NCBI GenBank assembly: GCA_030149205.1
Contig: JASBSB010000001.1
Span: 30,001-62,000, forward strand
DNA: 32,000 nt
Reading direction: 5' to 3'
DNA from: Candidatus Heimdallarchaeota archaeon
GTDB lineage: Archaea; Asgardarchaeota; Heimdallarchaeia; Heimdallarchaeales; Kariarchaeaceae
This document shows positions 22,606 to 31,086 of this stretch, piece by piece (the stretch's first letter is position 1; each line of letters starts with the position of its first letter). The notes under the pieces were generated by a model. It made no database searches. It was not told where the DNA came from and was given only the letters and a program-made list of their open reading frames with translations. The position numbers and the translations under genes are program-made.

Positions 22606-23478
22606 CTAAAGATATCTAAATATTATCGCCAGTGTTATCCCTCCAACTCCTGCAATAAAGGTTGCAAACAGAAATGTTAGAAGATCTTGTTTATCATACT
22701 TTTTGGAGCTAAGTTTATTCAAATGGTTTTCGATTCGACGAATTGACCTATCCAGGTCCCTAAAAAGACCACTTGTGTCAACACTGCTTGGTTTTGGGTT
22801 TGCTCCATCTACTTCCTCAACGAGATCCAACCACCTATTTAAAGCCCCAAAATCTTCAGTAGAGAGGTTTGCCTTATGTGCATTAAGATCATTCCTTATC
22901 AATTCTACTTTTTCTCGAGTTATCTTTGGTGCATAGAATAATGGTTTAGATAGTTCTTGAATCTCTAGTTCAGGAAATTTAGATTTTAGATATACCGCTA
23001 ACCCAAATTCCAATCCATCAATAACCTCATAGTGAATCTTAAGTGCTGAATTGTTTCTAACAACGTAGACACCAAAATCTAAATTATTTAGAGTTAAAGT
23101 TTCCTGATACTTTAATGGATCGATGACAATAGCAATCGCTTCTGGAAACAAATTTTGATAGTTTGATTGGGTGTTAATATCTGTTCCTGACATAAAGGAG
23201 GTTAATCCTGGGTGAGTGTGCCACCACCCAACGATTGTTTTGTTATCAGTTCTGTTGCTCACCTTCATAACTGCATTTACTAGCGCCTGATCTGACATTG
23301 TAACGTGAACAGATGTTCCCTCTTGTTCTCCCACCTCAATTTCATCCACATATAACACGCCTTCATCTAAATGTCCTATTAGAAGACCCGCAGTCTCTTT
23401 CCCAGGGTGAGTCTTATCAAAATGAATCATTTGTGCAACAGCTTTTGCCTTAATTTTAACGAGAGGTGGTGTACTCAT
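22606..23478 (-). CDS. MPN+/JAMM metalloisopeptidase (Rpn11/CSN5-like) with a helical C-terminal region and a C-terminal TM anchor
   Basis: KETAGLLIG, GWWHTHPGLTSFMSGTDINTQ (H-x-H-x7-S-x2-D), AIVIDP; C-terminal LLTFLFATFIAGVGGITLAIIF-RYL. Confidence 0.88.
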   Translation of the reverse strand: MSTPPLVKIKAKAVAQMIHFDKTHPGKETAGLLIGHLDEGVLYVDEIEVGEQEGTSVHVTMSDQALVNAVMKVSNRTDNKTIVGWWHTHPGLTSFMSGTDINTQSNYQNLFPEAIAIVIDPLKYQETLTLNNLDFGVYVVRNNSALKIHYEVIDGLEFGLAVYLKSKFPELEIQELSKPLFYAPKITREKVELIRNDLNAHKANLSTEDFGALNRWLDLVEEVDGANPKPSSVDTSGLFRDLDRSIRRIENHLNKLSSKKYDKQDLLTFLFATFIAGVGGITLAIIFRYL

Positions 23479-23557
23479 CTAACTATTATTTTTCTATAAA
23501 GTAAATAAAAGTCTCTAATATATTTTGCCTAATTTATTAATATTTCATAAAACAGTA

Positions 23558-25105
23558 TCATGATGTTAACCCACGCTTCGCCTTTTCATAAACCTTGTCT
23601 GGGTTTGAGTAATATTCAGCAATCTGGGCAGAGACGTCTCTGAAATGTCTGATTTGTTTTTTGGCAAGCCATCTTAGCACAACCTCCCTTCTTTCAATTT
23701 CATCCCAGCACTCTTGATCACTCATACCTGTGGTGTTTTTGATTTTTTCAATAAGATATGATCTTCCAAAGAAGGAGAAGTTATCCTTGGTTGCGTTCCA
23801 TGAGTACAGCTTATTTGTAAGTAGTTGTTTAGTTACGGGGTCGAGGTCTATTATTTCAGTCACCTCTATAGACCTTCTCGCAAATTTACCTTGGGTTCTT
23901 ACTTTCTTCTGTATGTGAATTAAATCCAGAGATTTGATCATTGCCCTCGGTACGTTCATTGGTGCAGACTCTAGTCTTCCAATAACACCTTGAACACTGT
24001 CACCGTGTATGGTTCCCATCCCTGCATGTCCTGTTGACATTGCCTGGAAAAGAGTATATGCCTCGGCACCACGAATTTCACCCACTATGATGAAGTCAGG
24101 CCTTTGTCTCATTGCAGCTCTAAGTAGATCGAACATTGAGATCTCTCCTCTTTGAGTTCCATCACTGCTTTTGTTTCCGAAACCACCTCTGGAAACTGAT
24201 GGAATCCAGTTTTCCAGCCCAATGTTTAATTCCGCGGTATCTTCAATAGAAACAACTTTCAGATCAGGTTTCAACAGCATAGACAGAGCATTTAGAAATG
24301 ATGTTTTTCCTGCTGCTGTTCCTCCAGCAATTAGCAGACTCATTTGATATTGTATAATGAACCAATAATATGCAGCGATTTTACTGTCAACTGTGTTTGT
24401 TATAATTAGATCTGTTATTGTCCAAGGGTCTGCCCTGAATCTTCTGATTGTGAAGGTCGAGCCTTTTTGGGTCACTTCCCTTCCAAAAGAGAGTTGGAGA
24501 CGAGAACCATCAGGAAGGGACGCATCTAGTAATGGTTGAGCGATAGATACATGTCTCCCAGATCGCTGGGCTAATTTAATTATAAAAGAATCTAATTCTG
24601 TTTCATCAGTAAACATTATGTTAGAGGCAATTGACTCAAAATCACGGTGCCAGATATAAATTGGGACATTTAAACCATCACATGAGATATCTTCTATTAG
24701 ATGATCATGTAGGAGGGGGTCTATGATACCATATCCTATTAAATCTCTTTCAATGTAATACATTAATTTAGCCTGTTGCTCAGCTGTAAGTTTAATCCCA
24801 TACGTTTTGATTGTGTCGGTAACCATTTTTTTCAAATAGTCTTGAGCCTTTCCCTCGTTTGAAAGAACAGTGAAATCCACAGCCAATTCTTCAATTAAAA
24901 CATCTTTAATGAAGTTAAAATATTTTTCCTCAGTTGTATCAAGTTGATCCTCCATAACTTGATAGGTGGTTCTTTTGCTTACAGGGTCAGTCTGTATTAG
25001 TGCATAAGAATATGGTGGTTTCAGGGGATAATTCCCCTGTAAAATTGGCATAGTGCTTTCAACACTTGCCAGATCATCTAGTTTGGGCATCTCAAATTCC
25101 GACAT
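23558..25105 (-). CDS. Type IV pilus/secretion ATPase (VirB11/TadA/ArlI family)
   Basis: Walker A GGTAAGKTS, Asp box IEDTAEL, Walker B IIVGEIRG, His box GHAGMGTIH, IEDISCDG. Confidence 0.95.
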   Translation of the reverse strand: MSEFEMPKLDDLASVESTMPILQGNYPLKPPYSYALIQTDPVSKRTTYQVMEDQLDTTEEKYFNFIKDVLIEELAVDFTVLSNEGKAQDYLKKMVTDTIKTYGIKLTAEQQAKLMYYIERDLIGYGIIDPLLHDHLIEDISCDGLNVPIYIWHRDFESIASNIMFTDETELDSFIIKLAQRSGRHVSIAQPLLDASLPDGSRLQLSFGREVTQKGSTFTIRRFRADPWTITDLIITNTVDSKIAAYYWFIIQYQMSLLIAGGTAAGKTSFLNALSMLLKPDLKVVSIEDTAELNIGLENWIPSVSRGGFGNKSSDGTQRGEISMFDLLRAAMRQRPDFIIVGEIRGAEAYTLFQAMSTGHAGMGTIHGDSVQGVIGRLESAPMNVPRAMIKSLDLIHIQKKVRTQGKFARRSIEVTEIIDLDPVTKQLLTNKLYSWNATKDNFSFFGRSYLIEKIKNTTGMSDQECWDEIERREVVLRWLAKKQIRHFRDVSAQIAEYYSNPDKVYEKAKRGLTS

Positions 25106-28230: not shown

Positions 28231-29532
28231 TCAAAATATTTGGACAGAATAAGGTAATCCCCATTTACTTTGAAAGATTAACCAGAATGATAGCAATTGG
28301 AATATCAAACTTGTCAATATAGAAATTCCAAAAGCTATCGGATATCTCTGTTGGTTCTTTGATGTTATTTTTGACTGACCAACACCGAGCGTAAATACAA
28401 AAAAGAAGAAACTAAGAAACATCGGAATTGAGACTAGGAATAGAAAGTTTAGAGAAGAGATCTGTCTGGCTGCAAATTCACTGCTATCTGGTGTAAATCC
28501 AACAAAGACTTGATATTGATACCCAGCGATGACTTGGGCAGGTATAAGAACCAACATTGAGACACTACTTATAATCATAGTTGATTTCAAGAATTCTTTG
28601 CTTAAATTACCAGTCACAAGTCCGACGACTAATGGTTGAATCAAAAGCCAACTTAACAGTACACTTAGGTACATCAGACTAACCCCAGTCCAAATTTGAC
28701 CATGACCTACTGAAGCATCAACTGCTTGCTCCGATGAGACACTGATAACCTGAAAGTTCAAAAAATAAAAGAACCCTCTTCCATAACGAATTACTGAGTA
28801 CAGCAGAGTTGCAATTAGTGGAACACTCAATAGAAACCAACCGGGAAGAATCTCTGCATAACCCCCTCTAGTTGGCCTAAAAATAAAATCTTCAATAAAC
28901 CTTAGGAGTTTGTCAACTGTCCCAATTTTCTGTATCAAATAATAAGTAATTAAAGCAGGAACTATTAGCATTGCTGCAATGATGAGTCCAGTAATAACCA
29001 GTGTGACAGGGTTTGCAAGATTAAGCAATAATGGAGACAAAATAAATTGATCTGAGTTTATGAGGATCAAGGGGTAATAAAATGATGAGAATAACATAGC
29101 TAAGAATGGTATGCTAAGTTTAACTAGGTTAGGCTTCTTTTCAACTGTGTTATACCATATCCTTTCATTGACAATATCATCGAGAACTGGTTCAAAATCA
29201 GAGAGGATTTGCCCATCTATGGGTTTGTTTTCATATTTTGTCTGGAAGCTATTAATAATATCATTTAATAGCTCTTGAGCATCATCCTCATCCATTCGTT
29301 TATCAATTGTCAAAACAAAGAGAAGACTCTCTTGTCTTTCCTTAAATATGGTTCGAACTTCCTGCAAATCTAAGTTCTCTATTTTCTCACCTTCTGTCTC
29401 AGTGGTCATAGAATAAATTGCACTGATCAAACCTGCAGTTAAGGATACATCAGTCTCGACATTTTTTTTCCCATATTCTTTTGAAAAGTAAATGGTACCA
29501 TAAGTGGTCATGACAATGAGAGTCTTAATCAT
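28231..29532 (-). CDS. Longin-domain protein fused to an approximately 7-TM membrane domain (possibly Yip1-like)
   Basis: The N-terminal ~125 aa (TLIVMTTYGTIYFSKEY...LTAGLISAIYSM...LLFVLTID...LLNDIINSFQTKY...DFEPVLDDI) follows the longin beta-beta-alpha-beta-beta-beta-alpha-alpha pattern; seven hydrophobic segments follow. Confidence 0.75.
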   Translation of the reverse strand: MIKTLIVMTTYGTIYFSKEYGKKNVETDVSLTAGLISAIYSMTTETEGEKIENLDLQEVRTIFKERQESLLFVLTIDKRMDEDDAQELLNDIINSFQTKYENKPIDGQILSDFEPVLDDIVNERIWYNTVEKKPNLVKLSIPFLAMLFSSFYYPLILINSDQFILSPLLLNLANPVTLVITGLIIAAMLIVPALITYYLIQKIGTVDKLLRFIEDFIFRPTRGGYAEILPGWFLLSVPLIATLLYSVIRYGRGFFYFLNFQVISVSSEQAVDASVGHGQIWTGVSLMYLSVLLSWLLIQPLVVGLVTGNLSKEFLKSTMIISSVSMLVLIPAQVIAGYQYQVFVGFTPDSSEFAARQISSLNFLFLVSIPMFLSFFFFVFTLGVGQSKITSKNQQRYPIAFGISILTSLIFQLLSFWLIFQSKWGLPYSVQIF

Positions 29533-29554
29533 AGATTTTATTTTGATGAAACCT

Positions 29555-29567
29555 ATTTAAAACAATT
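29555..29567 (-). promoter_or_regulatory. Putative TATA promoter (AATTGTTTTAAAT) of the longin gene, probably giving a leaderless mRNA
   Basis: TTTTAAAT box about 25 nt upstream of ATG 29532; no SD visible. Confidence 0.45.
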
Positions 29568-29647: not shown

Positions 29648-29735
29648 TGAGCTAGAAGGGATTCGAACCCTTGACCTTCGGGTATCTTTAAATGTTTAAA
29701 AGCCCGCTGCTCTAGCCAAGCTGAGCTACTAGCCC
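29648..29735 (-). tRNA. tRNA-Lys(UUU) with a 13-nt intron at 37/38 (intron 29684-29696); CCA not encoded
   Basis: Acceptor GGGCTAG/CTAGCTC, D stem GCTC/GAGC, anticodon loop CT-TTT-A, T arm AAGGG-TTCGAAT-CCCTT. BHB central helix CTTT/AAAG with 3-nt bulges; T-tract downstream. Confidence 0.95.
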
Positions 29736-29901: not shown

Positions 29902-31086
29902 ATGTTTGATAATCGGGTTAATCCTTCAAATTTAGAGAGTATATTTAGAGGGGCGATTAGACCAATTAAAGACATAGATTACATACCTAGTTCTGAAGCT
30001 TGTAAAAGAATCAGTGTAGACACCCTTCGTACCAAATATCCACTCCCTGAATTTGATTTTTCTCAGGTAGATGGTTATGCTTTGGGGTCTCATAGAAAGG
30101 AGTTCAATCTTATTGGTGAGGTAAAAATCGGAGAGCAAAATACCAGAACCTTAAAGGATAACGAATGTCAATGGGTACCAACTGGAGCTATGATTCCAAA
30201 AAACACATACGCAATGGTTAAAGTTGAAAATACAGAAGTTAAAGGACATACAGTTAGGTTAATTAAAGAGGTAATTGAGGGCCAGGAGATTGTCCGAGCA
30301 GGATCTGATTTCAAAGATGGTGAAATTATTGTTGAAGAAGGAAGTTTAATTTCAGAAACAAAAGTTGCGCTGCTTTCAGCGTTCGGTTTTTCATCAATCC
30401 GTGTTTTCAAAAAACCTCGTATAACTATCTTTGTAACTGGTCATGAAATTAAAAAAGTAGGTCAAAAAAAAGAAATCACAGAAGTTTATGATTCGATTTC
30501 CCCCTTGCTTAGTGTTTATGTTCAATTACTGGGTGGACAGGTAATAGACATTACATATGTTGATGAAACTGTAGAAGACCTTAGAGCTAAGTTTGCAACA
30601 TCTCTCCATTCAAGTGATTTAATTATAACAATTGGCGGCACATCAATGGGAAAGCAAGATAATGTAAAAAAGACAGTTGAATTGATTGGAGAAACAATAT
30701 TTCATGGAATTTCTCTACGACCGGGGAAACCGCTTTATTTTGGTAAAATAGAATTAACACCAGTTATTGGATTTCCAGGATTTTTTGGTTCGAGTATCAT
30801 TATGGCTAATTTTGTTCTTCCAACCCTCTTTAAAGTATTAACAGGAGTTTCAACTACGATTCCAAAAATTCAGTCTGTAGAATTAAGTAATGAAATCAAG
30901 AGCTACCAAGGTTTCGAAAGATTAATTCCAGGAACAATCAGAAGTGGAGTATTTGTCCCAACCTTTAGTACTTCATCATCGATTCGATCCATATCAGAAG
31001 CCACAGGGTTTGTTCATGTGAAACAGATAGATGGTTCACGAATACCTAAGGGTGGTTACCTAAAATTTACAGAATTCCTGTCTTAA
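29902..31086 (+). CDS. moeA: Molybdopterin molybdenumtransferase
   Basis: SQVDGYA, VPTGAMIP, IFVTGHE, TIGGTSMG, LRPGKP, GFPG. Confidence 0.9.
   Translation: MFDNRVNPSNLESIFRGAIRPIKDIDYIPSSEACKRISVDTLRTKYPLPEFDFSQVDGYALGSHRKEFNLIGEVKIGEQNTRTLKDNECQWVPTGAMIPKNTYAMVKVENTEVKGHTVRLIKEVIEGQEIVRAGSDFKDGEIIVEEGSLISETKVALLSAFGFSSIRVFKKPRITIFVTGHEIKKVGQKKEITEVYDSISPLLSVYVQLLGGQVIDITYVDETVEDLRAKFATSLHSSDLIITIGGTSMGKQDNVKKTVELIGETIFHGISLRPGKPLYFGKIELTPVIGFPGFFGSSIIMANFVLPTLFKVLTGVSTTIPKIQSVELSNEIKSYQGFERLIPGTIRSGVFVPTFSTSSSIRSISEATGFVHVKQIDGSRIPKGGYLKFTEFLS

Follow-up and report, generated by a model that had tools for sequence, protein, structure and literature searches.

A longin domain fused to a polytopic membrane domain in Heimdallarchaeota, with a five-helix core that may be a distant relative of Yip1

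The subject of this report is P0001, a protein of 433 amino acids (aa) from a Heimdallarchaeota contig (JASBSB010000001.1, assembly GCA_030149205.1), in which a longin-fold domain predicted to be cytoplasmic is followed by seven predicted transmembrane (TM) helices. The window analysed here is a stretch of 32,000 nt of that contig (positions 30,001-62,000, forward strand), and coordinates given without further label refer to it; the complete coding sequence of P0001, stop codon included, occupies positions 28231-29532 on the minus strand. We propose that this polytopic membrane protein would hold its longin domain on the cytoplasmic side of the membrane at all times, that its last five helices may form a domain related to Yip1, and that the whole might act as a docking platform. 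Taken in its entirety, this explanation is the best that we can offer, and we give it slightly less than an even chance; its parts differ in strength and are weighed separately.

The gene itself is real, conserved and present in a single copy in its own genome. The sequence-only reading had marked a gene at 28231-29532 without giving a strand, and a 433-aa open reading frame (ORF) fits these positions exactly, on the minus strand. A search of 5.8 billion proteins returned 34 full-length relatives with 33-54% identity, and homologues in such number and at such identity mean that the gene is genuine and selected for, rather than an ORF that arose by chance; because its N-terminus (MIKTLI...) aligns with the homologues from the first residues, the start codon is also right. 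Those relatives that are named all come from metagenome-assembled genomes of Heimdallarchaeota or Kariarchaeaceae and are annotated as "hypothetical", and an exhaustive search of representatives yielded 30 proteins at E ≤0.001, consisting of the full-length family, its fragments and more distant proteins in which only the N-terminal domain is shared. When 201 Asgard species genomes were sampled, the membrane part of the protein occurred once per genome in 28 of the 31 genomes of the window's order (4/6, 21/22, 1/1 and 2/2 in f1, f2, f22 and f23, respectively) and in none of 13 genomes from other families of the same class. Nor was the P0001 family found in the remaining sampled Asgard lineages, where the single weak match proved to be a member of a sister family described below; we refer to the P0001 family as the Heimdall group wherever the two have to be told apart.

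As judged from structure modelling, residues 1-128 (29149-29532, minus strand) are a longin fold, so that the longin domain called in the sequence-only reading stands. The full-length, alignment-based AlphaFold2 model, with a predicted local distance difference test (pLDDT) of 88.5 and a predicted template modelling score (pTM) of 0.86, places strands at residues 2-9, 14-19, 53-55, 59-66 and 70-77 and helices at 29-47, 82-100 and 111-124, that is, in the longin order b1 b2 a1 b3 b4 b5 a2 a3 (bb-a-bbb-a-a). In a Foldseek search of the PDB, every match listed was a longin or roadblock protein, with a probability of 1.00; they included AP-2, AP-1 and AP-3 sigma, Mon1-Ccz1, Bet5/Trs23 of TRAPP, VAMP7, Sec22b, LAMTOR and MglB. 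For AP-2 sigma, Mon1-Ccz1, Bet5/Trs23, VAMP7 and Sec22b the E values ran from 8.5e-4 (AP-2 sigma) to 1e-2, and the template modelling score by target was 0.71 for Sec22b. Four Pfam models of the longin type fall on the same residues, all of them short of their gathering thresholds: Fuz_longin_1 (24.2 bits against 26.1), Clat_adaptor_s (17.8 against 22.5), Intu_longin_1 (17.1 against 23.7) and Longin (12.3 against 26.2). Since these matches are consistent but below threshold, membership of the longin class rests on the fold. The helix that had been quoted as typical of Asgard longins, LTAGLISAIYSM, is alpha1 (aa 29-47) and forms the most conserved stretch of the protein, with a majority-residue frequency of 0.89 as against 0.72 for the longin domain overall. 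Its motif, L-T/S-x-G-L/F-I-S-A, recurs in longin paralogues of the same genome, where related longin domains occur, in other architectures, in eight or more additional ORFs; the longin count of this genome is in line with published Asgard counts (PMC10933270; bioRxiv 10.1101/2020.10.19.343400).

Two other kinds of longin protein were noted along the way. A 413-aa ORF of the same genome (L041:1300-2538, minus strand, corresponding to G000:C2 around 332986-333183) begins with hydrophobic helices and continues into a weak match to the P0001 longin domain; it may be a second, different membrane-anchored longin protein. Five proteins from outside the window (P0047, P0049, P0050, P0054 and P0055), of about 250 aa, form a family that is made up of a related longin domain, a helical region and, at the C-terminus, a Cys-rich motif (C..C..C), and they have no Pfam match except longin.

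The remainder of P0001 is a membrane domain. Hydropathy reveals seven hydrophobic segments, and the full-length and TM-only AlphaFold2 models agree with it and with the earlier count of seven, predicting helices at residues 136-158, 175-203, 231-251, 279-307, 312-336, 361-389 and 394-421, with high confidence for the TM-only model (pLDDT 94.9; pTM 0.91). Three parts can be distinguished, all on the minus strand: a TM1-TM2 hairpin that belongs to the Heimdall-group form only (aa 136-203; 28924-29127), a predicted cytoplasmic juxtamembrane helix that carries the motif RPTRGGYAExLP (aa 205-230; 28843-28920), and a five-helix core, TM3-TM7, which is the candidate for a divergent Yip1-like domain (aa 231-421; 28270-28842). 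Lysine and arginine together account for 0.20 per residue in the TM2-TM3, TM4-TM5 and TM6-TM7 loops versus 0.06 in the other loops and the C-terminus, and the juxtamembrane loop with the RPTR motif holds 4.7 of them per sequence. By the positive-inside rule, this contrast in density predicts that the longin domain and the three basic loops are cytoplasmic and that the C-terminus lies outside. The strongly conserved residues beyond the longin domain are all on the cytoplasmic side, in RPTRGGYAExLP before TM3, TGNLxxxFxKS between TM4 and TM5, and KNxxRYP between TM6 and TM7. In the first of these (aa 219-230), P220, R222 and Y225 are invariant and R219 is nearly so. Conservation is 0.66 for the juxtamembrane motif and 0.43-0.49 for the helices, lowest (0.43) in TM1-TM2. 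Such a peak of conservation in alpha1 and in the juxtamembrane motif fits a cytoplasmic protein-binding surface.

Alpha3 of the longin domain ends at residue 124 and TM1 starts at residue 136, and with a linker of only about 10 residues the longin domain must sit against the membrane surface. The same linker bears on one other way of reading the protein, namely as a prototypic longin SNARE or a coat or tether anchor of the kind seen in Sec22b, VAMP7 and Ykt6. It is true that eukaryotic longin SNAREs are membrane anchored and that the longins of VAMP7 and Sec22b are among the Foldseek matches. SNAREs, however, are tail-anchored by one helix, whereas P0001 has seven; the roughly 10 residues between positions 124 and 136 are too few to accommodate a SNARE motif, which takes about 60; and in the sister family the corresponding linker is the RPSR juxtamembrane helix. 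The longin SNARE reading is thus disfavoured, and we regard a SNARE or anchor of this kind as highly improbable.

The libraries searched offered no explanation of the membrane domain. Pfam and NCBIfam gave no match to the membrane part of P0001, and when the PDB was searched by sequence, neither the protein nor profiles found anything of relevance to it; fold searches with the TM-only model reached at best an E value of 0.4 in the PDB by Foldseek and a template modelling score of ≤0.37 in the ESM Atlas, and VIA-align wide produced partial helical matches only (Z ≤6.3). A language-model search of the Atlas with aa 130-433 and aa 204-433 afforded no usable lead. The membrane domain is, on the predicted structure, confidently modelled and without a match to any solved or Atlas fold searched. 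For the full-length protein, prediction of a homodimer scored 0.02 against a mark of 0.42, which is evidence neither way.

What delimits the core of this domain is the sister family. Among the distant matches, P0043, P0048, P0040 and P0057 have a longin domain that leads directly into an RP[ST]R motif and about five helices, and a second search collected 19 such sister proteins of about 365 aa from Ranarchaeia, Hermodarchaeia and Promethearchaeota; within the sampled genomes they are confined to a single family, f13, where 6 of 19 genomes have them. The longin domains of the Heimdall-group and sister families share 27-35% identity and eight invariant positions, and from RP[ST]R to the C-terminus the two families align with high significance (hhalign 97.8%, E 1e-12, 204 columns), the RPSR of the sister family falling at the position of the RPTR of P0001. 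TM1-TM2 is absent from the sister family and from P0040 and P0057. Since both the longin domains and the cores are homologous between the two families, the ancestral unit would have been a longin domain, the RP[ST]R motif and five TM helices; by sequence comparison, TM1-TM2 look like an addition of the Heimdall group. A profile of the merged core, searched against the 5.8-billion-protein collection, retrieved family members only.

Is this core a Yip1 domain? The sequence-only reading had called the last five helices Yip1-like, and the answer is divided: the N-in five-helix topology, the similarity found with a merged profile and the language-model matches of the sister family speak for the call, whereas Pfam and the drop of the signal with a wider profile speak against it. 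The alternative is that the architecture is exactly as described, but that the membrane domain has a lineage-specific fold of Asgard archaea, without kinship to Yip1, the profile similarity being produced by a shared five-helix topology, by composition and by a few chance motif matches. We would give this alternative, too, a little under an even chance.

Several observations favour the relationship. The strings that had been quoted as "Yip1-like" are the ends of TM4, TM5 and TM6, the same places at which hhalign aligns the family to Yip1, and a Yip1-type topology is predicted for aa 231-421, with five helices and the N-terminal domain in the cytoplasm; the sister family has exactly five. To compare profiles, we used the merged alignment of the Heimdall-group and sister families (termed A6) and a profile of the zinc-ribbon subfamily of Asgard Yip1 proteins without the zinc ribbon. 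Local hhalign gave a score of 31.6 (30.8%, P 5e-4) and global hhalign 60.8% (P 1e-5) over 193 colinear columns, in which RPTR was aligned with the motif that Yip1 proteins conserve before TM1, and the TM6-TM7 loop with their "GIREAH" loop. Neither the local nor the global score was reached by any of 100 block shuffles, and three unrelated membrane families of similar size (Asgard Rhomboid, CPBP/Rce1-like and VTT/DedA) gave 11.7-17.4 locally and 1.7-2.5 globally against A6. Among 416 membrane proteins, the best non-self match of A6 was a Yip1 protein, with 25.3 versus 21.2 for the highest-scoring decoy. Conversely, when the Yip1 profile was used for the ranking, family members took 9 of the top 24 places, with Mann-Whitney p values of 1.5e-5 and 0.009 that are overstated since the sequences are related. 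Genuine but divergent members of PF04893 reached 28-99% against the narrow Yip1 profile; those at 28-60% lie in the same range as A6. Both families also align, separately, to the same segment of Yip1, a short basic loop plus the start of TM3 (GGxG....T..VGYS..P).

A score above all shuffles and above three unrelated families, and an alignment that is colinear across the whole domain and sets conserved loops on conserved loops, both argue against a fold unrelated to Yip1. The same can be said of an independent method, since in a language-model search with the sister core three Yip1 clusters were the top named matches (0.81-0.84, with 177-183 shared features). As for the motifs, Yip1 proteins carry a DLYGP-type motif before TM1 and GY at TM3, which appear in the Asgard Yip1 alignment as PDxxGP and VGYS; in the sister family, core TM3 begins with an invariant GY (G104, Y105), and GYS is found in the Heimdall-group proteins P0015, P0021 and P0027.

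Other evidence weighs against kinship with Yip1 and supports the alternative of a lineage-specific fold. The Pfam model Yip1 (PF04893) found no match, at E values up to 10, in 35 family members and 4 sister proteins, 39 in all. Profiles of the single families reached only 1.4-3.4% by hhalign against a 16-sequence Asgard Yip1 profile. When the Heimdall-only profile was compared with single-sequence templates, with 401 membrane ORFs of the own genome as decoys, Yip1 did not stand out, its best rank being 25 of 417 and not significant; for the sister family alone, 17.5% of block shuffles reached the real score against Yip1, which is again not significant. With a wider Yip1 profile of 29 sequences, the agreement with A6 fell to 6.3% locally and 14.5% globally. 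P0001 itself lacks the GY, having SVS instead, and the DLYGP-type motif is not recognisable in the family, RPTRGGY standing at the aligned position. The language-model search with the core of P0001 returned no Yip1, the fold searches of the PDB and the Atlas produced no convincing match, and among the Atlas matches listed there was no Yip1 cluster, which does not exclude one. In the PDB copy searched, sequence did not detect any Yip1 structure that could serve for a fold comparison.

On balance, we treat the relation to Yip1 as a borderline remote-homology lead, with about even prospects, and not as family membership. The reading that we prefer, in which the five helices are related to the Yip1 domain but have diverged strongly from it, the zinc-ribbon proteins of Asgard archaea being their nearest Yip1 relatives, seems to us just as probable as its opposite; the zinc ribbon of those proteins takes the place that the longin domain has in the P0001 family. 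Canonical Yip1 proteins (PF04893) of many Asgard genomes (loci L003-L022, for example L003:1483-2295, minus strand) consist of an N-terminal CxxC...CxxC zinc ribbon, a conserved PLLKRPE-type linker and the Yip1 domain, and some Asgard genomes have two adjacent Yip1 genes (G002:C13, G014:C109). The genome of P0001 has a canonical Yip1 of its own (G000:C2:578383-578880, minus strand; locus L001), an ORF of about 315 aa that scores 18 bits on the Pfam Yip1 model, below the cut-off, and 99.3% by hhalign against the Asgard Yip1 profile.

With regard to function, we infer that P0001 could reside in the membrane as a platform that docks or regulates a soluble partner, an idea that we hold tentatively and with somewhat more doubt than confidence. 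The likeliest partner would be one of the many Arf-, Rag- or Rab-like small GTPases that Asgard archaea encode. It would bind to a surface made up of longin alpha1 and the conserved loops on the cytoplasmic side, and would in this way be brought to the membrane or switched there. This model draws on the fact that longin and roadblock folds are known GTPase platforms and that conservation is concentrated on alpha1 and the adjacent cytoplasmic loops. It also draws on the existence of a longin plus small-GTPase fusion, P0052, among the relatives of the P0001 longin domain found by sequence (a weak link to GTPases), and on the abundance of soluble small GTPases in Asgard archaea. Two points count against it. 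First, some longin domains work without GTPases, for instance in SNAREs and coat subunits. Second, in the neighbourhoods compared, no GTPase, roadblock or longin gene lies beside members of the P0001 family. A function of P0001 as a GTPase receptor is an inference, and the still more specific proposal that a Yip1-type core and a longin platform together make up one self-anchored GTPase receptor or exchange factor strikes us as distinctly unlikely.

A regulated transporter or enzyme is a serious rival to the docking platform. Here the membrane domain would have an activity of its own, as a transporter, channel, scramblase or lipid-handling protein, and the longin domain would be its cytoplasmic regulatory or sensor module, no GTPase being involved. 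The confident packing of the seven-helix bundle (pLDDT 94.9) would suit such a protein, as would conserved polar residues and prolines in or beside the helices (W and P in core TM2, Q in the last TM helix, and the N/R/P loop). NPRL2-type longins fused to signalling domains do exist in Asgard archaea (bioRxiv 10.1101/2020.10.19.343400), and the language-model search with the P0001 core had weak matches to HisKA_7TM-bearing clusters at the top (0.82). The HisKA_7TM match, however, is within the stated chance range of the tool, the libraries searched contained no transporter or channel, by family or by fold, that resembles P0001, and conservation lies on the cytoplasmic surfaces, not in the membrane interior. 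We consider an activity residing in the membrane domain rather unlikely.

How does P0001 compare with systems already described? Fusions of longin domains are documented in Asgard archaea and comprise longin-GTPase proteins, longin-TRAPPC3, and NPRL2-like longins with signalling domains (Liu et al. 2020/2021, bioRxiv 10.1101/2020.10.19.343400; Tran et al. 2024, PMC10933270). P0001 resembles them in fold and lineage, shuffling of the longin module being a known Asgard habit, and differs in that the partner domain is a polytopic membrane domain. In the literature searched, we found no description of a longin domain fused to a polytopic (five- or seven-TM, or Yip1-like) membrane domain, and to our knowledge a fusion of the P0001 type does not occur in eukaryotes. 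The Yip1 family (PF04893; eukaryotic Yip1/YIPF, archaeal and bacterial) is similar in its five N-in helices, its cytoplasmic N-terminal domain and its conserved pre-TM1 motif, as well as in a short basic loop after which TM3 begins with G-Y, in the sister family, and in a short conserved loop before the last helix. The P0001 family, by contrast, fails the Pfam model, has RP[ST]R instead of the DLYGP-type motif and, in its Heimdall form, two extra helices; and where the N-terminus of Yip1 is a zinc ribbon in Asgard archaea and disordered in eukaryotes, that of the P0001 family is a longin domain. With Mon1-Ccz1, Bet5/Trs23 of TRAPP, LAMTOR of Ragulator, the SRX domain of SR-alpha with SR-beta, and MglB, the protein has in common a longin or roadblock fold at a membrane surface. 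By analogy, these eukaryotic GTPase platforms and MglB are what P0001 would most plausibly work like, but they are soluble dimers recruited by lipids, by lipidated partners or by separate membrane proteins, whereas in P0001 the fold is covalently joined to a membrane domain of its own. Asgard proteins expressed in human cells showed no membrane localisation (PMC10933270). The present work adds the sister family, delimits the conserved core and motif, maps how the gene is distributed among lineages and puts the Yip1 link to a controlled test.

The surroundings of the gene hint at no function. A TATA-like box, TTTTAAATA, read by eye at 29554-29562 (minus strand), 22-30 nt upstream of the ATG, might be the archaeal promoter for an mRNA with a short leader or none; the sequencing runs listed included no RNA run. 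Unrelated housekeeping genes flank the longin gene: phosphoglucomutase/phosphomannomutase and acylphosphatase on one side (plus strand), and MoeA, a 115-aa ORF and a family-2 glycosyltransferase on the other. When neighbourhoods were compared in five genomes, the neighbours differed, and no conserved partner gene was seen near the longin gene. MoeA lies near the longin gene in three close relatives (29902-31086, plus strand, in the window; L002:7588-8781, plus strand; L025:9048-10253, minus strand), with a different orientation and distance each time, which suggests local rearrangement around the longin gene and no operon. Directly upstream of the longin gene and on the same strand is a tRNA gene (29648-29735, minus strand; Rfam, 55.9 bits) with a 14-nt insertion, an intron, after the anticodon loop. 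Its loop sequence, CUUUUA, suggests tRNA-Lys(UUU), and the call of tRNA-Arg(GCG) made by ARAGORN was probably misled by the intron. Elsewhere in the window (22606-25105, minus strand), a PilB/FlaI-type secretion ATPase (T2SSE plus PilB3_C, 515 aa) adjoins a JAB/MPN-domain protein of 290 aa, and upstream of the ATPase there is a 351-aa ORF without a Pfam match.

Asgard archaea encode dozens of eukaryote-like small GTPases and of longin and roadblock domains. With a longin platform built into the membrane, P0001 is a specific candidate, amenable to cloning, for the part that would tie such a switch to the membrane. In eukaryotes, Yip1 and longin modules act separately in receiving and activating Rab/Ypt-type GTPases at membranes. 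A confirmed relationship of the five-helix core to Yip1 would mean that a single archaeal polypeptide unites two modules of trafficking which eukaryotes keep apart; without such a relationship, the protein would still represent an unnamed, confidently modelled membrane fold restricted to Asgard archaea. Should P0001 turn out to be a self-anchored GTPase receptor, it would show how Asgard GTPases, most of which are without lipid anchors, reach membranes, and would hint at an ancestral partnership of Yip1 and longin domains that is older than eukaryotes.

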